IMG/VR virus record: IMGVR_UViG_3300043253_000059
Coordinates: 1 to 30,763 of that record
Direction: 5' to 3' (one strand)
Source of the DNA: a virus
Lineage: Duplodnaviria; Caudoviricetes
Length of the DNA: 30,763 bases
Part shown: one piece after another, positions 4,404 to 22,841 of the stretch
Layout of the letters: every line of letters starts with the position of its first letter
Numbering within the stretch: the first letter of the stretch is position 1
Program-made: the position numbers and the translations under genes
Notes under the pieces: model-generated
What the model was told of the DNA's origin: nothing
The model's database searches: none
Seen by the model: only the letters and a program-made list of their open reading frames with translations

Positions 4404-4655
4404 CTAGGCGCGCCCGTCGGCCTCGCGGAAGCCGGGCAGGTCCCGGGGATCGTCGTCGACCGCAAGGCGCAGCACGTTGATGACGCCGTGATTGGGCCGG
4501 CTGGCGAATTCGAGATGCCCGATCCGGTACTGTTTCATTCCGTACAGCGTGGGGCAATAGACAACGTCGTGCCTGGTCAGATCCCGAAGCTCGATCACAT
4601 CGCAGTTGCCCGCGAGGCGAGGCTTGCCGTCGGTGCAGTCGATATAGACCAGCAT
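4404..4655 (-). CDS. Hypothetical protein (MLVYIDCTDG...)
   Basis: ATG 4655 overlaps the portal stop (TGATG); real part of the 4404..5045 track ORF. Confidence 0.6.
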   Translation of the reverse strand: MLVYIDCTDGKPRLAGNCDVIELRDLTRHDVVYCPTLYGMKQYRIGHLEFASRPNHGVINVLRLAVDDDPRDLPGFREADGRA

Positions 4656-6499
4656 CAGGCCTGGTTCCCCAGAAGAGCCGAGAGCGCGGTGTTGCCGCCG
4701 AGCCCCGTCTTGGAAAGGGTATTCGCCCCCTGGACCGCGGCCTGGCCGACTTGGGCTTGGGCCGCGAGCTGCGCCGCGGCTTGGGCCTGTTGTTTCAAGA
4801 GCCGGACCTGCGAGGCCGAGCGGATGATCCGCGAGGATGCTCCGCGCAGCTTGGCGACTTCGCGCACCGACTCGTCGGCGTCGAGGACGTATTTCGAATC
4901 GGGGAATTCGGCGGCGATCGACTGGGCAAAGGCATAGGTGCGCTCGATCGAGGAGACGCTTCCCGCTCGTCGCGCCCGGGTGAGTTCGGATTCGAAGCTG
5001 ACCTGGAGCGGGATGCCGTAGAGGCTCGGCGGGAGCTTCGGCCACATGCCCCTGCGGTGCAGGATCGCCAATTGGCGCTTGATCCGGGGCTGCAGGCCGT
5101 AGCGGTAGACCCGGTAGATGACGCCGCCCAACTGCCGCAGCAATTCTTCGCGCACCGCATCGATCTCCGTCGCCGATACGTCGCGCTTGGTGTTGTGGGC
5201 AATCTCCTCGATCGCCCGGAAGAGGTCGGCGTGCGACCCGCGGTGGATGCGCTCGCGCACCTTTTCCATGTTCTCGCGCAGCGCGGCGAGCGCCTGTGGG
5301 TCGACGACGTAATTGGGCTTGAATTCCGGGGCGCCGGTCGCCGAATCGTAATACGTGATGTGGTCGGGTTTGGTTGAATGCGGATCGTTCTTGAGGCTGA
5401 CCGGAGCGCTGTAGGAAGGCCGCGCCAATTTCTCGGCGAGCTCGGCTTCCCGGGCGACCATGATCTGCAACTGGATCGTATCGCCGAGGATCGTTTCACC
5501 CAGACCATGCCCATAAGGGTCGTTGGAGACGCGGTGCCAGGGCGCGGCGGCAAAGGGCTTCTCGCGGAAGCCCGCGACGGACAGCGGCGCTTCGTTCGAC
5601 TTGCCGACGATCCAATAGATTTCGCGCCAGGTAAAGCCGCCGGGGAGCCTGCCGCATTCGCTACCCGGCTCCCTTCCTTCGATCGCGAAATTGGGCTCGA
5701 TCGTGTGACCGACGACATATTCGTATTCGAGCGCGCCGCCCTTTTGCCGCCATTTCTGCTTGACTTCCTCGGGGCAATTGGCGAGGCCGAACTGCTCGAC
5801 GATCTGCGAGACGGTGCGGCGTTCCTCGACTTCCAGCACCTGGTCGGCGTAATCGGCCCCGGCGGCGAGGCAGAATTCGCCGGCACACGGGTTCTTGGAG
5901 ATGAAGATGTTTTCCTTGTCTTCGTAATCGACCGTGACGCCGGTCCCGAACGCCGTGATGTCCTCGTAGAAGAGATCGAGGCTCTCATAGAAATTGGTCT
6001 GGTCCTGGACGAACCGGAGGGTCTCGGTCAGATCCTCGAAAAACATCATCCCGGCGCGGTCGAGCTCCATCCCCGGGATGCCGGGGCCCAATTGCAGCCA
6101 TTCGCTGTCGGGGTCGGTGCAGGTCACCATGAGGCCGTTGGTGCAGGCCTCCAGATCGAGGGTCGCGGTGTTGTCGAGAATGTTGCCGTCTTTGCGCAGG
6201 CCCTTGTTGTAATTGTTCTCGACGATAAAGGCGTGGTATCTGCGAGGGAGCTCGAACCGGGCGATATCGCCCCAGGTCCGCCACCACGGAAGCCGCCAGG
6301 TCTTGTCTCCCGCCAAGCGCTGCTCGAGGTGGAGATACATCTGCGGCCAGCCGAGCCAGTCCGGCGCCTTGGTTTCGGGAACCTCGTTGAGGTTTGCCGG
6401 CTCCTGGGCGAGGAGCGCGGGGCTCGCGTTGAAGTAATAGGGCTGGGCCGGGTTGAAGCCCCTCTCGCCATAGCGTTTCTGGGCGGCGGCTTCAGCCAA
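4655..6499 (-). CDS. Portal (head-to-tail connector) protein
   Basis: 614 aa; FGTG, PF...W...S.DPYGHG.G...LGD..QLQ and SATEI....EE motifs typical of the podoviral head-tail connector family. Confidence 0.9.
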   Translation of the reverse strand: MAEAAAQKRYGERGFNPAQPYYFNASPALLAQEPANLNEVPETKAPDWLGWPQMYLHLEQRLAGDKTWRLPWWRTWGDIARFELPRRYHAFIVENNYNKGLRKDGNILDNTATLDLEACTNGLMVTCTDPDSEWLQLGPGIPGMELDRAGMMFFEDLTETLRFVQDQTNFYESLDLFYEDITAFGTGVTVDYEDKENIFISKNPCAGEFCLAAGADYADQVLEVEERRTVSQIVEQFGLANCPEEVKQKWRQKGGALEYEYVVGHTIEPNFAIEGREPGSECGRLPGGFTWREIYWIVGKSNEAPLSVAGFREKPFAAAPWHRVSNDPYGHGLGETILGDTIQLQIMVAREAELAEKLARPSYSAPVSLKNDPHSTKPDHITYYDSATGAPEFKPNYVVDPQALAALRENMEKVRERIHRGSHADLFRAIEEIAHNTKRDVSATEIDAVREELLRQLGGVIYRVYRYGLQPRIKRQLAILHRRGMWPKLPPSLYGIPLQVSFESELTRARRAGSVSSIERTYAFAQSIAAEFPDSKYVLDADESVREVAKLRGASSRIIRSASQVRLLKQQAQAAAQLAAQAQVGQAAVQGANTLSKTGLGGNTALSALLGNQA

Positions 6500-6728
6500 G
6501 GAGCGCTATTCCTGCGGCCATGCCGACTATCCAACTGGCCGCGGCCAGGTATTTAGCGGCCCTCTCGTTCTCGGCGAGGATTAAATTGTAGGCGAGGAAA
6601 GCGAAGCCGGCGCTGATGAGCGCCAAGCGCCACGCTGAGCCGTTCTGGGTCACCAGCCCGGCGATAAAGCATCCAGCCAGATAGAGCGCGGAATTGAGCG
6701 CGCCCACGTAGAAAACGGGCGTATTCAT
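6492..6728 (-). CDS. Small membrane protein with 3 hydrophobic segments
   Basis: MNTPVFYVGALNSALYLAGCFIAG...; start inferred at ATG 6728. Confidence 0.5.
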   Translation of the reverse strand: MNTPVFYVGALNSALYLAGCFIAGLVTQNGSAWRLALISAGFAFLAYNLILAENERAAKYLAAASWIVGMAAGIALLG

Positions 6729-6765
6729 CGGATCAATTCCGACCGCGAAGATGACGCCATAGCCG

Positions 6766-6972
6766 TCATTGTCCCAGAAGCGCCTTGGGTGCGGTCGGGG
6801 CATTGGGTGCGCCCTGGGGCGAGGTGGCGATGGTCTGGTTGGCGCTGGCCGCCGCCTGTTGCGTCTGGGCTTGTCCCGCGCCCTGGATGCCGGGATCGGC
6901 GTAGGTCGGCGGCGGAGGCGGAGGCGGCGGCGCCGGCGGCGCCTTGGGCGGGTTGAAGATGCTCAACGCCAC
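6766..6972 (-). CDS. Small proline-rich putative virion protein
   Basis: SIFNPPKAPPAPPPPPPPP...TIATSPQG...KALLGQ, typical of the small gene upstream of portal in this phage group. Confidence 0.6.
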   Translation of the reverse strand: MALSIFNPPKAPPAPPPPPPPPTYADPGIQGAGQAQTQQAAASANQTIATSPQGAPNAPTAPKALLGQ

Positions 6973-7079
6973 GGACTCACGAACCAGGCGATCTCGCGTT
7001 GGAAGCCGCGCAGGAACCACCAGCCGATACCGATGACGGTCAGGGCGCCGAGGGCGAAGCCAAGGAGGAGACCCGTCAC
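6963..7079 (-). CDS. Single-TM peptide (38 aa)
   Basis: GTG overlaps the nuclease stop (GTGA); LLLGFALGALTVIGIGWWFL is hydrophobic. Confidence 0.45.
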   Translation of the reverse strand: MTGLLLGFALGALTVIGIGWWFLRGFQREIAWFVSPWR

Positions 7080-7858
7080 GTCCGCATCCCGTAATGGTCG
7101 GCATCGAGGGCCGCTCTTGGGGTCCATTGTTCTTCGCGCGGCTTTCGTTCCGGCCAGAGGCTTTGGCGCACCACGTCGCTGTCCAAGGGACGGAAGGCAG
7201 CGATCGGCAGCCCGGACATCACGAGGTAGCGCAGGCAATCCATCAGATGGTCGTTGGATTTGACGACCTTCCCCTTGTCGTCGCGGCGGTAGATGCGGAA
7301 TTCGCCCATCAGGTTGACGAGGGTCGAAAATATCTTGAGCCGGCCCGACGACATCCGCGACCAGACCTCGTAGATCCCGGCCTCGACCGCGTTGTCGGCC
7401 GGGGTGATCCGCAGACCGAGGCCCTGGTACATCGTGGACAGCCGCGTCCCATCGATCTGGCTCCGGCCGCGAGCCGCCGGATCGTGCACTCCGGGTATCC
7501 AGGCGCCGCGCGCGCGGATCGCCTGGGCATGAACGGCGGGCTCGACCTCGCCCCGGTAATGCTCGGAATAAAGGTAGAGGACATCGGCTTCGGGATCGAG
7601 CGCGCCCCAGAGCGCGGCTGTCCTGTTCCACCCGACGTCCAGGGCGTAGGCATGCTTCCAGTATTTCGGCAGCTCGAACGGCGCGCAGAGGAGATCCTCT
7701 TCCGGCACCGGGTAGATCGCCCCCGACCCCAGCCGCGGCAGCCCGCGCATACGGGCGTCCCGTTCATGCGGCGGATAGGCTTCGGCGAGAGACTTCTTGG
7801 CTTCGGGCGAGAGATGAGGAACATCGTCCCAGCCCGCCATGACGACGTATTTGGTCAC
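7076..7858 (-). CDS. Terminase large subunit, C-terminal lid/RNase H-like nuclease part (P22 gp2-like), encoded separately
   Basis: WDDVPHL....K......YPPHERDAR.RG.P.LGSGAIYPV, ALDVGW, DPAA and NDHLMDCLRY acidic motifs. Confidence 0.88.
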   Translation of the reverse strand: MTKYVVMAGWDDVPHLSPEAKKSLAEAYPPHERDARMRGLPRLGSGAIYPVPEEDLLCAPFELPKYWKHAYALDVGWNRTAALWGALDPEADVLYLYSEHYRGEVEPAVHAQAIRARGAWIPGVHDPAARGRSQIDGTRLSTMYQGLGLRITPADNAVEAGIYEVWSRMSSGRLKIFSTLVNLMGEFRIYRRDDKGKVVKSNDHLMDCLRYLVMSGLPIAAFRPLDSDVVRQSLWPERKPREEQWTPRAALDADHYGMRT

Positions 7859-7859
7859 T

Positions 7860-9335
7860 CTACCAGCCCCACGCCGTCTTGCGCAGTTCCTCGGTCTCGG
7901 GGTAGGCCCCGCCGGGGAGGAAGTTGAGGACGGTCGCCGATATCCCCTGGAGCGGGGTGAAAAGGCCCATGATGAGCCCCGAGGGTTCGGCGGGGTTGGT
8001 CGACATCGTGCGGGTCAGGGTCTCGGTGTAGATGTCGAAGGGCGGCTCTTCGTCGAGCAGCGCGCCGTCGATCTTCGCCGATTGGAAGCTCTTGCGCTTC
8101 TGTTCATAGGCCTTGTAGACCAGATGCGAGCTGTAGCCGCTGTCGCGGTAGCGGATTTCCGCGAAATCAAGCGCATCGGGGATGCCGCCGCGGGTCGGCG
8201 AACGGCCGATCTTGTCGAAGGGGATGAGGCCGGTGCCGGGCTTCTCGGGCGGTCCCATCAGGGTCAACTGCATCCCTTCGCGCACCGCCTTGGCGTCTTC
8301 CCCCGCCGCCCACCAGGTTGTCGGACGCTCGAACCTGCGGCCTTCCCACCAAAGGGGATACCAGCCGGTCAAATGAAGCGCCGCCTCGTAGCATCCGGCA
8401 TAGGTCTTGCCGACGCGGTTGCCGGCGATAAAGGCGCGCTCGTGGTGCTTGGCGCCGGCCTTGAAGAATTCGAGATGCTTCGGATAGAGCTCGCGCCGCA
8501 GCGGGCCTTCCTCGGGGAAGGCATCGTAGAGCGCGCGGCGTTCGGCAAGATATTCATCGAGGCTCTTGCCCTCGGCGGCCGCGGCCCTGGCGGCGTTGGC
8601 GTCGATCGTGCTGCCGCCGTATTCCGCATCGACATTGACCCGAACCCATTCGTCGCCCTTACCCCGGCTGGCCTGGCGCTGGTAGAAATTCTTCGGGAGG
8701 TAATGGCCGCCCTCGGCGAGGTGGGTGCGCCCTCCCGGTTGGCGGTAGCGCTCGATGTCCTGGCGCTTGGCGAGGAAATGGTCTTCCGCCGGCATGCGCG
8801 AGGTGAGAATGACCCCGGACCACAGCGCATCTTCATGCAGCGAATCGGGGTAGGTTCCGGCGGCATCGATCGCGTCGGCGAGGATGTCCTCGGGATAATG
8901 TTTCGCCCAATCGAGCCAGATCCCCGTGGTCGGCAGTTGCAGGAGCTTCTTGCGGTGCTCGGGGCGGTCGAGGCTCAGAAAGTGGATTTCGAGTTCGACC
9001 GCGACGATCCGGCCCTCGCGCTGGCCGATGCCGTAGCGCACCCAATGGGTCAGGGCTTTTTCGTCCCAGCTGCCGATATCCGTGGGGACGCGCGCCTTCC
9101 AGGCATCGATCGTCTTGCTCAATTTCGCCATGTCGGGAGCGCAGGCGAGCCAGCGCCAGCGCGGCTGAAAGAGACCCTGGCGGGCGAGCTGCTGGGGCTT
9201 CAGGATGATGTCGGCGACCGCGGTCCAGCGCCGGCCGCCCTTCATCGGACCCATCAGCGCCCGCGCGAACCCCTGGCTCTCGGCAAAGGCCGACGAGACG
9301 GGTCCGGGAGAGGTCCAGTTGAGGCTGATCGGCAT
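7860..9335 (-). CDS. Terminase large subunit ATPase part: degenerate N-terminal ATPase fused to an intact P22-like ATPase
   Basis: Second half has YPKHLEFF, AGNRVGKT (Walker A), LLDEEPP (Walker B) and FTPLQG; first half has GPMKGGRR, ELEIHFLSLDRP..KKLL and GIWLDW. Confidence 0.85.
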   Translation of the reverse strand: MPISLNWTSPGPVSSAFAESQGFARALMGPMKGGRRWTAVADIILKPQQLARQGLFQPRWRWLACAPDMAKLSKTIDAWKARVPTDIGSWDEKALTHWVRYGIGQREGRIVAVELEIHFLSLDRPEHRKKLLQLPTTGIWLDWAKHYPEDILADAIDAAGTYPDSLHEDALWSGVILTSRMPAEDHFLAKRQDIERYRQPGGRTHLAEGGHYLPKNFYQRQASRGKGDEWVRVNVDAEYGGSTIDANAARAAAAEGKSLDEYLAERRALYDAFPEEGPLRRELYPKHLEFFKAGAKHHERAFIAGNRVGKTYAGCYEAALHLTGWYPLWWEGRRFERPTTWWAAGEDAKAVREGMQLTLMGPPEKPGTGLIPFDKIGRSPTRGGIPDALDFAEIRYRDSGYSSHLVYKAYEQKRKSFQSAKIDGALLDEEPPFDIYTETLTRTMSTNPAEPSGLIMGLFTPLQGISATVLNFLPGGAYPETEELRKTAWGW

Positions 9336-9348
9336 TTGACAACAGGAA

Positions 9349-9378
9349 AGCCCCGCGCGGAGGACATCCGGCGGGGCT
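9349..9378 (-). promoter_or_regulatory. GC-rich hairpin (possible terminator or attenuator) just upstream of the terminase ATG
   Basis: AGCCCCGC-CGGA-tgtcc-TCCG-c-GCGGGGCT followed by TTCCTGTT on the minus strand. Confidence 0.45.
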
Positions 9379-9441
9379 GGGGTGTCGATGAGATGATCTG
9401 TCGTGGTGTCGTTACACGATGCGTCTCGCTTTCTTGAGCCA

Positions 9442-9675
9442 TCAGTGTCCGGCGGGAGGGATAGGCGAGCTTTCTGACAAAGTCAAGAGCTTCCTTTCGC
9501 GCGCGAGCCACAAGGGCATGGTCACCAGATCATTATCGCCGATCTGTATCAATTTGAGGGGGAGCCAGGTACGCCGGTCGCCCTGGATGAACTGTACCGC
9601 CGTTCCCTTCAATGACCATTCCTTGACCCGGCCGTAGACCTGAACCGGCTCGCGGTCGCTGTCGGATCGGCGCAA
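9442..9675 (-). CDS. Small conserved phage protein (W.P...I...VTMP.WLA..R type)
   Basis: GGGGGAG RBS 8 nt before TTG 9675; hidden at the 3' end of the 408-aa shadow ORF. Confidence 0.6.
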   Translation of the reverse strand: MRRSDSDREPVQVYGRVKEWSLKGTAVQFIQGDRRTWLPLKLIQIGDNDLVTMPLWLARERKLLTLSESSPIPPAGH

Positions 9676-9816
9676 GCGGTATTCTCCCCCATGATCGGAC
9701 CGGCAATTACCGGCAAGCTGGCACGCGGCACGTTTGCAGCGAGTTTCTTTCTCGCGTGTTTGGCGGTATTGGAAATGGAGGGGGTGCGGCTCGAAGACCT
9801 CTGACGGAGGAGCATC

Positions 9817-10629
9817 TTGAAACGCCCCGAAGACCCCCAGTACATACAAAAACGCCGCCAGCGTGAGCGCGAAAAGAGGGACCGCCAAAAGCACGAGGCT
9901 AATCTTGCTACGATCAACTCCATCGCTAATGAACTTGCAGCCACAAAAAAACAATCCCAATCCGACGATGATAAGCGAGCATTTCGCGAAAAGCTGACCA
10001 TAGCTTTGCTCATTGCTACCGTTGTCGCCGCTGGACTCGGCGATGTGTTTTTCTATGGCCAATTGAGAGAGGCCAAAAAATTGTATGGCCCTATAGCACA
10101 GCAAGCTTCTGCCGCCTCGCAGAGCAGTAATGCTCTGATTAACTCGGAAAGAGGAAAGGTGTTTATCAACACTATCAAGCTGAAGAAGTCTACCGATGCC
10201 GATCCCCATCCCCAGATCGATTATAGTTTCATCAACTTGGGAAGAAGTCCAATTCTGACAACAACCGTATATGCCCAATGCCAACTTATTGGGAATGCTG
10301 TTCCGCTCACGCCAATTTACGACAAAAGCAAAGGGAGGGTGGGGCAAAATGCCGTCGGCAGTAACGCGTCCTTCGGATCGACCGGCGCATCCCCCGACTT
10401 TCCCGCGTGTATTATTAACCCTGAGATGACGGCCCAGGATTGGGAAGAGGTTACTGGGAATACCAAATTTTTCTTCCTTTCTGGATATGTTTATTATCAA
10501 GATGCCTTTTATAAATATCGGTGGTATTTCGGAGACATTTATCGCGGCGAAATACAACTCTTCAGCACATACGGATTGCCATCGGCCTACAATGACGAAA
10601 CCCAAGAGGAATACGCCAAGGCCCGCTAG
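9817..10629 (+). CDS. Moron-like membrane-anchored protein
   Basis: GGAGGAG RBS before TTG; one TM (LTIALLIATVVAAGLG); N.G.SP and G.VYYQD.F motifs; AT-richer; opposite strand to its neighbours. Confidence 0.75.
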   Translation: MKRPEDPQYIQKRRQREREKRDRQKHEANLATINSIANELAATKKQSQSDDDKRAFREKLTIALLIATVVAAGLGDVFFYGQLREAKKLYGPIAQQASAASQSSNALINSERGKVFINTIKLKKSTDADPHPQIDYSFINLGRSPILTTTVYAQCQLIGNAVPLTPIYDKSKGRVGQNAVGSNASFGSTGASPDFPACIINPEMTAQDWEEVTGNTKFFFLSGYVYYQDAFYKYRWYFGDIYRGEIQLFSTYGLPSAYNDETQEEYAKAR

Positions 10630-10683
10630 AACTCCTGCCTTATGAAACGACGGTCTTATGCGGGCCATCGCCCGCTCCGCGAT

Positions 10684-10857
10684 CTACTTTACCTCCGCTC
10701 TATGTGGTAACTTTTGCAATAAGACCAATGGCTTGGCGTTGATCCTTTGCGCCATAATACCGACAAACTGCGGCGATCCAATCTTTTGCCGGTTGTAATG
10801 ACGGTCAGCCAGCACGCGAGCCAGCGGATCAGCCCTATGTGAATGGCACCAGTGCAT
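10684..10857 (-). pseudogene. Probable internally deleted remnant of a conserved phage protein (SHRADP.A..LADRHYNRQK.GSPQFV type)
   Basis: ATG overlaps the upstream TAA; only 57 aa, while I recall this N-terminus on much longer phage proteins. Confidence 0.45.
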
Positions 10858-13128: not shown

Positions 13129-13415
13129 TCTGCGGCCTCCTCGTGCGCGTGCACGTGCGAGGCTTCGGGCGGCAGCATGCCGAGGGCGCGCTCATAGACC
13201 TCGACCAGGGTCTCCTGTTCGTCGCGGCTGTCCTTGTCCATCGCCCGGTGGCGCAAGACGATGCGCATGATCTTTGGGTCGAACCCGGTCCTCTTGGCTT
13301 CCTTGAAGACCTCGGAGATGTCGGCACCGAGGGCCCTGCGCTCTTCGTGCAGGGGCTCGATCCGTTCGATAAAGGATTTGAGCCGGTCTCCGGCTATGCC
13401 GCTGATGGTTGTCAT
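13125..13415 (-). CDS. gapR: GapR-like (DUF2312) nucleoid-associated DNA-binding protein
   Basis: RLKSFIERIE.L.EE...L..DI.EVF.EAK..GFD.K.MR.V...R.MD...R.EQE.....Y..ALGM. Confidence 0.9.
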   Translation of the reverse strand: MTTISGIAGDRLKSFIERIEPLHEERRALGADISEVFKEAKRTGFDPKIMRIVLRHRAMDKDSRDEQETLVEVYERALGMLPPEASHVHAHEEAAE

Positions 13416-14452
13416 GTGGGTATCTCCGAATATTCAATCCCATCGAGGAGACGGCCGGCGGCTTTCTTGCCGACGCGGATATAGTCGCCATGGCTGTAGG
13501 CGATGATCGCGCGACCGTTGACGCTTGTCACTTCGCCATCAGGCTCGTCGACGGCCTGATATTCACCCCATTGCTTTAGGAAAAAGGCGACGCCAGCGGC
13601 TTGACATTGGTCGCGCAACGATCGAGCCCATTCCGGGTGCATCGGCCGCGCGTTGGGACCGCTCTCCCCGCCGACGATCACCCAATCGAGCTTGCCGCCA
13701 ATCTTCGTGGGCGCGCCGAAATCACCCGTCTCTCCATCCGGGAAGCGCATGCGCATGGCCTCTTCGCCGCGCAATGGATAAAGGCGCCCACGCGGACCGC
13801 GATCTAGATAATCAAGCCTCAGAGAACCGATCAGCGGTTCTGCCGAGATAAACCTCTTGGCGGCTGGGGTATCCAAGAGGAACGGGATGCGCTCGTCGGC
13901 GCGGAAATGGTCCTCGACCGATACGCCGAGCCAGACGTTTGGCAGCGGCCATTTCAGACGAGCGGGATTGTATTGCCAGTTCCCGTCGATGTGATGGTCG
14001 AAGCACGCCGGTACCTCATGAGCGAGTTTGAAAGCCGCTGCTGTCGCTCGATCGGCCCCGGCTGTGAGGTAATCCCGCATCCGCTCGGCCCGTTTGGTCA
14101 GCACCTGGAAGGTGTGCTGGGGGCTGAGCGCCATGACGGCGAAGACCTTGTCGATCCACGCGTCGGGCACGGCTTCGTGGAAGATGTCGCCGTGCGCGCA
14201 AACGAAAATCCGCCGGGGACGTTTCCATCTGAGCGGCTGGTCGAGCCAGTCGGTGTTGAAGCGTACTTCGCCCGTCCATACCGGGCCGGCCTTGGTGTCC
14301 TGGGTGAGGCTCTGGCGCGACCAGTGATGCTTCATCCGCGTGCCGGCGAGCTTCATCGCGTAGCAGTTGGCGCAGCCCGGCGAGACGACGCTGCATCCCG
14401 TGATCGGGTTCCAGGTGGCGTCAGTCCACTCGATCGGCGTGTTGTCAGCCAT
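13412..14452 (-). CDS. Phage Gp37/Gp68 (DUF5131) family protein
   Basis: IEWTDATWNP.TGC..VSPGC.NCYA, HTFQVLTKR, NVWLGVSVE, WVIVGGESG..ARPM, FFLKQWG. Confidence 0.93.
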   Translation of the reverse strand: MADNTPIEWTDATWNPITGCSVVSPGCANCYAMKLAGTRMKHHWSRQSLTQDTKAGPVWTGEVRFNTDWLDQPLRWKRPRRIFVCAHGDIFHEAVPDAWIDKVFAVMALSPQHTFQVLTKRAERMRDYLTAGADRATAAAFKLAHEVPACFDHHIDGNWQYNPARLKWPLPNVWLGVSVEDHFRADERIPFLLDTPAAKRFISAEPLIGSLRLDYLDRGPRGRLYPLRGEEAMRMRFPDGETGDFGAPTKIGGKLDWVIVGGESGPNARPMHPEWARSLRDQCQAAGVAFFLKQWGEYQAVDEPDGEVTSVNGRAIIAYSHGDYIRVGKKAAGRLLDGIEYSEIPT

Positions 14453-14974: not shown

Positions 14975-15463
14975 TCATGACGGCATCCGCTCGAATGTGC
15001 CTTCGAACACCGGCAATTCGCCGTCGGTCGGCGCCAATTCCTCGGATTCGGGCGCGCCTGGCGCGAAGTGCAGGCTGCGCGGCTGTTCCTGGTGGATGTA
15101 GGGCATGACCGCGCGCCAGTTGGCGAGGTAGAGCTCGACCGCTTTCGCCGGCTCGCAACCCCAGATCCGCGCGAGCTCGGCCACCTCATCCTGATCGAGG
15201 ATGTTCTTGCCGGCGATCGCCAGCGCGCGCAGCAACGGATCCGCGAAACCAGGGTCAACCGTGTGCATCTGGCGCATGTAGAACCGCGCCATTTCGCCGG
15301 TGCGCTTGTTGCGCGAGCCTTTGGGACGCCCGGCGCCGTCGCGGTGGCCGCCGCGGCTGGCCAGATCGGGCGTGCCGAAGAGATCGGGCGCGTGCATCGC
15401 CCGGCTGGTGTCGCCGATCGATGGCTGGACCGCTCGCGCGAGTGCTTTTCGAGGGGTGCGCAT
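14975..15463 (-). CDS. Putative terminase small subunit
   Basis: RGG.R.GAGRPKGSRNKRT, DPL and PYIH motifs typical of terS-like proteins. Confidence 0.6.
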   Translation of the reverse strand: MRTPRKALARAVQPSIGDTSRAMHAPDLFGTPDLASRGGHRDGAGRPKGSRNKRTGEMARFYMRQMHTVDPGFADPLLRALAIAGKNILDQDEVAELARIWGCEPAKAVELYLANWRAVMPYIHQEQPRSLHFAPGAPESEELAPTDGELPVFEGTFERMPS

Positions 15464-21421: not shown

Positions 21422-21660
21422 CGCCGCACCCTGCGGATCGGGATGATCTGAGCCTCGGGTTTGGGCTCAACCAGCTGCAGCCAGAACGGCAACCCCTTGT
21501 CGTTCAACCGGTCGATCAGCCGCTGGGCTTTTGATTCGGCGTCCTGTTGGGTCTCTCCGAGGACGATCAATTCCGGGCAGAGGTCATTATCCTTGAAGAC
21601 CTGGCAGAGACACGCCGGGGATTGACCGAAGGAGGGGCCGAGGCGGTAGGGCTTCGTCAT
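21418..21660 (-). CDS. Hypothetical protein
   Basis: ATGA coupling. Confidence 0.55.
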   Translation of the reverse strand: MTKPYRLGPSFGQSPACLCQVFKDNDLCPELIVLGETQQDAESKAQRLIDRLNDKGLPFWLQLVEPKPEAQIIPIRRVRR

Positions 21661-22841
21661 GCCGGCGCCCCCTTCGGTAGGGCGAGGGGTTTCAGCCCAT
21701 CAGCGGCCCTCAGCTGGTTCGCTAGATCGTAGAGGCGCTGCAGCGAGCTCGGCTTGCCGTCGAGCACCACTTCGACTTTCTCAAGCCAAACCGTTCGGCC
21801 ATCTTGCGCGTCGGAAGGCTGGCCCTCGCGAATGATCGCGCTTCGGCCTTTGCCGCGCAGAAACGCCGCGACCTGCTCCGGCGATTGCACCAGGCTCACG
21901 CCCTTCTCGGCGATGAATTTGGCAATCGCGTCTCCGTCGGGCCCGGCGGGCTTCGGTTTCAGCGGCGGGGCTGTTGGCCGCAACGGCACCGCGGCGCGCG
22001 GGACAACCGGTCTAGCCGGTTCCGGCGCAGCGAGCGGCTTGGCTGCGGCGGCGCGTTGCGGCGTCAGCGCTCCGCGCAGCCCCGCGACGAGGAGCGGGAT
22101 CGCGCCGGAACCACCGAGCCCGAGCGGGCTTGTCGCCGCCCATCGCTCGGGGCCGAGTTTTTCGAGCGCCCGGCGCAGCTCTTCGGCGCTTCCGTTTTCG
22201 TTCAGGAACCGCGCCGCCGCCTCAAAGAACGCGCCGTGCAATACTCCCCGTTCGCGGCCCCAGCACGCCATCAGCACCGCGATGGCAGAACCGAGATTAG
22301 CCGCGCCCTGGGTTTTCAGCGCCCTGCGCAGCGACGGGATCGCCGCGGTTTTGCCTGGCGGCACCTGTTTGATCGCCATCGCGTAACCGAGCAATTCGAG
22401 ACCGGCCGCATCGGCAAGGCGCTTGAGTTCTACCGCCTCCGGGCGCCCCGCGAGCAATTCCCCCTTGAATAGAGCTTGTGGGCTAAGCCCAAGGCGGTCG
22501 CGGTTCGCCGACGCGAAGATTTCAGCGGCCTGGTCAGTCGAGGTGACGCCGACGACGACCGCCGGCACCAGCGGCTGGCCGACCGCCCGCGCCGCGGCGA
22601 CGCGGTGCTGGCCGTCGATAATTTCCCAACGGCCGCCCTCCTTCGCCATGACGATGACGACCTGAAACTTCGCCCAGCGAAAATTCGCGGCTATTCGGGC
22701 GATATGACGCTGCGAGGCAGGACGGTCGATCGTGCGCTGATACGCCTCATCGACGTCGAGCCGGTCGACCGGGAGCCACGCGAGCTCCGGACGCGGACCC
22801 GGACCGGGCGCGTCGGCAGCGTTCAGCACCGCGTCCACCAC
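21657..22841 (-). CDS. ParB/Srx-like N-terminal domain protein (DUF6551-like)
   Basis: L.W.PV..L.VD..YQR, IA..F.W..F, IIDGQHR.AAA. Confidence 0.8.
   Translation of the reverse strand: MVDAVLNAADAPGPGPRPELAWLPVDRLDVDEAYQRTIDRPASQRHIARIAANFRWAKFQVVIVMAKEGGRWEIIDGQHRVAAARAVGQPLVPAVVVGVTSTDQAAEIFASANRDRLGLSPQALFKGELLAGRPEAVELKRLADAAGLELLGYAMAIKQVPPGKTAAIPSLRRALKTQGAANLGSAIAVLMACWGRERGVLHGAFFEAAARFLNENGSAEELRRALEKLGPERWAATSPLGLGGSGAIPLLVAGLRGALTPQRAAAAKPLAAPEPARPVVPRAAVPLRPTAPPLKPKPAGPDGDAIAKFIAEKGVSLVQSPEQVAAFLRGKGRSAIIREGQPSDAQDGRTVWLEKVEVVLDGKPSSLQRLYDLANQLRAADGLKPLALPKGAPA

Follow-up and report, generated by a model that had tools for sequence, protein, structure and literature searches.

The packaging genes terS, terL and portal are commonly regarded as a single co-evolving block, and the names and catalytic roles of the motifs considered here belong to established knowledge of ASCE/terminase ATPases. 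The Walker A and B motifs and arginine fingers of these ATPases have been described (PMC7617512), and in P22 and lambda the C-terminus of TerS binds TerL, in P22 at the 58 N-terminal residues of TerL (PMC9611059). Incomplete or additional terminase domains have also been reported, viz. in Rak2-like phages, phiM12 and phiN3, where a truncated terminase precedes TerL (PMC5259590), and in T4 as vs.8, a free-standing terminase-ATPase-like protein (bioRxiv 10.64898/2026.04.30.721860).

The gene described here lies in the window, the stretch of 30,763 nucleotides from a soil phage of the Caudoviricetes (IMG/VR record IMGVR_UViG_3300043253_000059). Its open reading frame (7860-9335, minus strand, 491 aa) joins a degenerate TerL ATPase domain, hereafter the dead domain, in frame to a live P22-like ATPase (Table 1). 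The TerL proteins of BcepC6B, Mx8 and RHph_TM3_14A match the front domain at 28-30% identity across nearly all of aa 1-241 and agree with it in fold and in the lid motifs QPGG and AEN, but in the window its catalytic motifs are replaced, its nuclease is missing and it is fused to another TerL. The second half is 35% identical to P22 gp2 (residues 40-243, E 2e-31) and 49% identical to the TerL of EBPR podovirus 1 (PF03237 plus PF17289 in each), and the adjoining nuclease gene 38% and 59%, respectively, with intact motifs, whereas in the window this motor is split into two genes, the first of which begins with a foreign dead ATPase in the same frame. The truncated terminase of the Rak2-like phages, phiM12 and phiN3 likewise stands beside a real terL; however, it is T4-type and a separate gene, while the dead domain is of another family, is fused in frame and has passed among unrelated motors. 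T4 vs.8 is reported to retain Walker A and B, which the dead domain does not. BPP-1 has the portal, major head, protease and Bbp16 families of the window, but its TerL (Bbp25) belongs to another family than the front domain. No report of a tandem of a dead and a live terminase was found in the literature searched, in which subscription papers were thinly covered. The fused dead-domain terminase is real, is kept by selection in its relatives and represents a novel form of terminase.

Table 1. Coordinates and supporting evidence for features of the packaging genes in the window
Feature	Position	Strand	Basis
Degenerate TerL ATPase domain with lid, BcepC6B/Mx8 type, aa 1-241	8613..9335	-	Phage-record matches, structure model
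Remodelled Walker A GPMKGGRR, aa 29-36 (Lys to Arg, Ser/Thr to Arg)	9228..9251	-	Alignment columns
Remodelled Walker B IWLDW, aa 139-143 (WxNE in live family)	8907..8921	-	Alignment columns
TSRMP instead of DTNPP, aa 178-182	8790..8804	-	Alignment columns
Linker, motor N-terminal helices and intact P22-like ATPase core (AGNRVGKT, LLDEEPP, FTP), ending AWGW-stop	7860..8612	-	Domain searches, P22 gp2 alignment, model
Separate gene for remaining TerL: putative lid region and RNase H-like nuclease (LDVGWN / HDP / DHLMD)	7076..7858	-	PF17289, P22 gp2 259-466
TerS-like gene, 162 aa (GRPKGSRNKRT ... PYIHQ), displaced 5.6 kb upstream; putative terS from position of homologs	14975..15463	-	
Portal / head-tail connector, BPP-1-like head module	4655..6499	-	PF12236, phrog_332

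Composition of the fused terminase gene

The front half matched TerL in 22 phage records by tblastn, including the three named above, and the best phage rows showed 25-30% identity across 94-98% of 242 aa (E down to 2e-19); identity to BcepC6B TerL is 29% over 260 columns. An AlphaFold2 model of this half (pLDDT mostly >90 at aa 11-240) is closest to solved TerL ATPases, viz. D6E (Z 19.1, rmsd 3.0, 206 aligned), P74-26 (Z 18.2), Sf6 (17.7) and HK97 (17.4), with non-terminases at 13.0 or below, and its fold has an ESM Atlas match of TM 0.88. Model comparison indicates an ASCE P-loop terminase fold with lid, and aa 1-241 are confirmed, from the matches and the predicted structure, as a complete TerL ATPase fold of the BcepC6B/Mx8 type. 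The C-terminal nuclease of such TerL proteins is absent, and the P22-like ATPase stands in its place. A preliminary description of this DNA had held that the front half follows a terminase family throughout, as these results bear out, but had called it BPP-1-type, a label that had to be dropped: Bbp25 gave 0.25% by HHalign and no BLAST or HMM match, and the likeness to BPP-1 is confined to the head module. Pfam and PHROG gave no match for the front half and recognised only the second half, and a PDB sequence search with the front half was empty.

The second half is confirmed as an intact P22-like ATPase core (aa ~259-491), as had been proposed; it is recognised by PF03237 (aa 302-467) and phrog_31467, its model resembles P74-26 (Z 15.6), and AGNRVGKT, LLDEEPP and FTP occupy aa 304-311, 426-432 and 459-461. 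Together with the 260-aa product of the gene behind it (7076-7858), it resembles P22 gp2, with Walker A and B, FTP and the nuclease acidic motifs all intact. The preliminary description was right about tandem ATPases, but had overlooked that the nuclease lies in this separate gene. The two chains are divided by a TAG codon followed 1 nt later by a GTG start. The 120 best relatives of the second half came from a search limited to 134-427 aa, which leaves out full-length forms; each of them ends shortly behind FTP (112 within 45 aa). Among the 80 closest viral loci, 47 have a split gene, 32 a whole one and 1 shows no nuclease within view; the stop-1 nt-start junction of the window recurs in L177. 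The split between ATPase and nuclease is a trait of this motor lineage. A frameshift error between the two genes was rejected on the basis of the split relatives, the L177 junction and two sequencing runs with 0 differences. Split P22-like terL genes were seen commonly (L176-L255; 1436 short relatives), at times with genes inserted between the halves. In L092, a 337-aa intein-like insert that begins with Ala (locus 7995-10436) lies in Walker A of the second, live ATPase and not of the first, and a 71-aa ORF separates the ATPase and nuclease genes.

The fused frame is not a misassembly, because the exact 491-aa protein was found on 5 contigs, region 6500-10500 lies within one contig in each of two public runs (the two that agree fully; either may be the source), and the same fusion recurs at 63% identity of the front half (P0002/P0007). 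The two halves are without significant mutual similarity, and an internal duplication of the ATPase was therefore rejected. In a first model of the whole protein the second half was unfolded, in a second it was folded (pTM 0.60), and neither fixed the orientation of the domains. No sigma-70-like promoter was found in 7000-10800. Just upstream of terL, an opposite-strand gene (9817-10629, plus strand, 270 aa) with one hydrophobic stretch, a GC content of 48-53% against ~65% and a moron-like look gave no Pfam or PHROG match. The early region of the window contains a DUF5131 gene and a ParB-like gene (13412-14452, 21657-22841).

Motif loss, relatives and selection

The three altered motifs and the intact motifs of the second half reported earlier are all present; in the dead domain they lie within GPMKGGRRWT (aa 29-38, nt 9251-9222), IWLDWAK (aa 139-145) and TSRMP, with Arg35 and Arg36 at the Walker A Lys and Ser/Thr positions and Trp143 at that of the Walker B Glu. 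A collection of 49 distinct degenerate and 131 live domains was assembled, and motif counts compare 41 non-redundant degenerate rows (49 minus 2 contig-cut rows and 6 near-copies) with the 131 live ones. The live rows were chosen by Walker A, so a comparison of the Walker A columns is circular; among the degenerate rows the Lys position holds Arg in 38 of 41, and the Ser/Thr position holds Lys or Arg in 38 and Ser/Thr in none. The Walker B Glu is present in 3/41 degenerate against 129/131 live rows, and Lys and Glu occur together in 0/41 degenerate rows. At the DTN site, which we take to be the coupling motif, DTN has become (T/S)SR, with Arg at the Asn position in 38/41 degenerate rows and Asn in 131/131 live rows. 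Arg158 (1/41 against 131/131), Arg161 (8/41 against 128/131) and Arg66 of the RNTY motif (16/41 against 131/131) are likewise mostly lost, while the structural positions G29, P30, R61, F119, W140, P163, QPGG and AEN are common to both sets. The dead domain is thus remodelled at its catalytic positions, and is predicted to be a pseudo-enzyme without ATP hydrolysis.

A search of 1.84 billion representatives gave 867 matches, the best 150 of which were examined, and pattern scans of viral and metagenome DNA contributed further loci. The dead domain occurs alone, in proteins of 253-274 aa, or fused to three unrelated motor families: among the 49 degenerate domains, 25 are joined to phrog_38 motors, 4 to P22-like and 2 to phrog_5902 motors, and 18 are partnerless, some of which may be frameshifted or cut (P0022, P0049), with DNA at hand for L106 alone. 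By members, the P22-like fusions are P0001, P0002, P0007, P0017, P0164 and L092, the phrog_38 fusions P0019 and 25 rows, and the phrog_5902 fusions P0018 and P0036. In quick unrooted trees the degenerate rows fall on one side of a branch with SH-aLRT 100 (41 against 40 sampled live rows), and with SH-aLRT 99 when the motif columns are removed (32 against 47 rows), and the type of motor partner switches several times along the degenerate branch. The dead domain is hence confirmed as a family with a shared branch and not a one-off, and its degeneration appears, from these alignments, to be older than, or independent of, the P22-like motor of the window. The dead form was found in no cultured phage record or plasmid record; a pattern scan of a contig collection gave 11 stretches, none encoding it, a locus search with the front half alone or with a two-sequence alignment gave no loci, and the final viral pattern scan no additional one.

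Selection was estimated by a Nei-Gojobori script on 19 phrog_38 fusion loci, i.e. on relatives of the window gene. In the four closest pairs among those listed, dN/dS of the dead domain is 0.047, 0.02, 0.198 and 0.178, and that of the live ATPase in the same pairs is 0.040, 0.099, 0.191 and 0.165; among distant pairs, near saturation, dN/dS of the dead domain reaches up to 0.64, above that of the motor. The dead domain of these relatives, with values of 0.02-0.20 in the closest pairs, is thus under purifying selection. That the domain might be a neutral recombination scar or an assembly artefact would fit with the failure of Pfam and PHROG to match it and with one frameshifted copy; nevertheless, this explanation is refuted for the family by purifying selection, by the conservation of the substituted motifs, and by the independent contigs and homologs. 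The fusion sought in other genomes was accordingly found there, both with P22-like and with further motor partners, and the outcomes that would have spoken against its reality (no terminase homology, a unique or neutrally evolving fusion, a misassembly) did not appear. In the frameshifted copy (L152, 4942-7197), the dead domain is split over two reading frames, by error or by a real break, and is followed by an intact phrog_38 motor.

The TerS-like gene, the portal and the role of the dead domain

A homolog of the TerS-like gene is present in 15 of the 18 dead-domain contigs with at least 4.7 kb upstream (counting four copies of one phage and two of another) and in three more with a shorter flank, and in 0/80 unfused P22-like motor loci within 6-kb flanks, many of which are cut. 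When this gene was used as query, 18 loci came back, each of which (18/18) has a BcepC6B-type ATPase domain: 8 are dead fusions, 6 of which were sources of the query, and 10 are new loci with a live TerL, where the gene lies within ~500 nt upstream in 9/10 (~7 distinct). Because of this position before live TerL, it is likely the TerS of BcepC6B-type TerL. It gave no named Pfam or PHROG family and no match to the TerS of BcepC6B or BPP-1, HHalign gave only 75.8% against the genes upstream of other live TerLs, and its Atlas feature match is DUF5681 (0.92). Judged by eye, the closest unfused motors (L176, L178, L179) have a TerS-like gene of their own directly upstream, at the place of the dead domain here.

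We regard it as about evenly balanced whether the dead domain acts as an adaptor between the lineage's own TerS and a foreign motor, coupling genome recognition to the motor; this is our best explanation of the sequence evidence. An ancestral terS-terL pair would have lost nuclease and catalysis once. The remaining domain would have kept its TerS-binding surface and its place as first gene in the packaging operon, and other motor and head modules would presumably have been taken up behind it afterwards. Genome selection would fall to the TerS-like protein, if it is a TerS, and the dead domain would link that protein to the motor; the C-terminal ATPase would translocate DNA, and the gene that follows would provide lid and nuclease. 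The preliminary description had likewise proposed an adaptor, retained when a foreign terminase replaced the motor; a selected, TerS-linked adaptor made of a dead ATPase ahead of a live one is still the best reading, but the idea of a local remnant is not supported, the degeneration being common to one homolog branch. A wider proposal, to which we give slightly less than an even chance, is that a dedicated, TerL-derived pseudo-ATPase is a third terminase component of tailed phages and a universal plug, through which one recognition system (or the dead domain itself) drives at least three unrelated motors with two portal types. That a selected pseudo-enzyme stays with a TerS-like gene while motor and portal change suggests that motors may be swapped without losing genome specificity.

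Several observations count against the adaptor, among them the lack of a named family for the TerS-like gene, the faster divergence of the dead domain in distant pairs, the two frames in L152 and the DNA that follows the standalone copy L106. The co-occurrence of the TerS-like gene with the dead domain may be plain linkage, because this gene follows replication genes. In the clade formed by L136, L140 and L141, with 8.5 kb of upstream DNA in each, no homolog was found, even in the whole records (24-35% complete), and L140/L141 have the lowest dead-domain dN/dS despite this. A sister relationship between the dead branch and those live TerLs that have the TerS-like gene is not recovered in the tree, which does not resolve at its base. 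A complex prediction for the dead domain and the TerS-like protein scored 0.01, which was counted neither for nor against.

The retention of the dead domain where no TerS-like gene was found is also what would be expected if it bound DNA or a phosphate ligand itself, as all or part of the genome-recognition subunit, i.e. a TerL domain recycled as TerS. The domain sits at the terS position, the TerL ATPase domain of P74-26 is described as its main DNA-binding site (PMC5389665), and basic residues are newly conserved at aa 35, 36, 128, 130, 180, 191 and 203, with a net charge of +2.7 (n=41) against -2.0 in live rows (n=131), a weak indication as the rows are related and GC-rich. However, the RNTY motif, whose Arg66 is invariant in live rows, is mostly gone, and the TerS-like gene is still there in most contigs, and we consider this possibility unlikely.

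The occurrence of the dead domain across motors, portals and standalone forms would fit a module independent of its packaging partners, such as a decoy or shield with which the phage would counter bacterial sensors of terminase (Avs, Upx), the fold being kept and the sensed ATP-Mg site gone; EcAvs2 is described as touching the terminase-bound ATP and Mg shell via a bridging ATP (bioRxiv 10.64898/2026.04.30.721860). The fixed first place before the motor, the co-retained TerS-like gene and the motor-level constraint fit a packaging role instead, which makes a decoy quite improbable. Pseudo-enzymes often regulate active paralogs, and the full fold including the lid is retained, as would suit an allosteric regulator or scaffold of the motor ring that restrains the ATPase or the separate nuclease. 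This is very improbable: the motor partners are of three unrelated families, with and without a covalent nuclease, so that a shared specific interface is unlikely, and the split P22-like motors do without a dead domain (0/80).

The portal, major head, protease and Bbp16 genes of the window are of BPP-1-like families, and docking of the foreign motor on the native portal had been suggested as a task for the dead domain. In its favour, the window and L092 retain a phrog_332 portal, which also accompanies live BcepC6B-type TerL in 6/6 scanned loci that carry the TerS-like gene. Beside phrog_38 fusions, however, 9/9 scanned portals belong to the unrelated phrog_12082, and a phrog_332-like portal is found in 9/80 unfused P22-like motor loci, including 5/7 of the closest; as unfused relatives of the motor already pair with such a portal, no portal adaptor is needed, and docking is disfavoured as a highly remote prospect. 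The adaptor between TerS and motor remains the preferred reading. As a soluble, separable piece, the dead domain could help to map the contact between TerS and TerL, which is poorly defined, and as a natural terminase predicted to lack catalysis it could serve to test which features Avs/Upx sensors respond to. Classification based on terL and annotation by Pfam and PHROG overlook it.

The surroundings of the dead domain vary among its relatives. In L010 and L061 the gene order differs: behind the fused terL come primase and a helicase-like gene, and the TerS-like gene stands after these. A conserved gene of ~180-200 aa without a PHROG match, which may resemble late-transcription regulators (putatively DUF6456), lies immediately before the dead domain in L146 (7903-8523), L142, L099, L104, L136, L138, L152 and L106. 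The standalone copies carry two different conserved tails, possibly for docking, in P0010-P0015, P0020 and P0021 and in P0024, P0031 and P0041; the tails consist of a long predicted helix or of a short hydrophobic segment. In L106, the sole standalone copy with DNA, the 80 nt downstream are unlike a TerL start. In L136, the primase is followed by an inverted-repeat-rich non-coding stretch (6800-7940) with, by eye, a tRNA-like sequence at ~7540-7620 on the minus strand.
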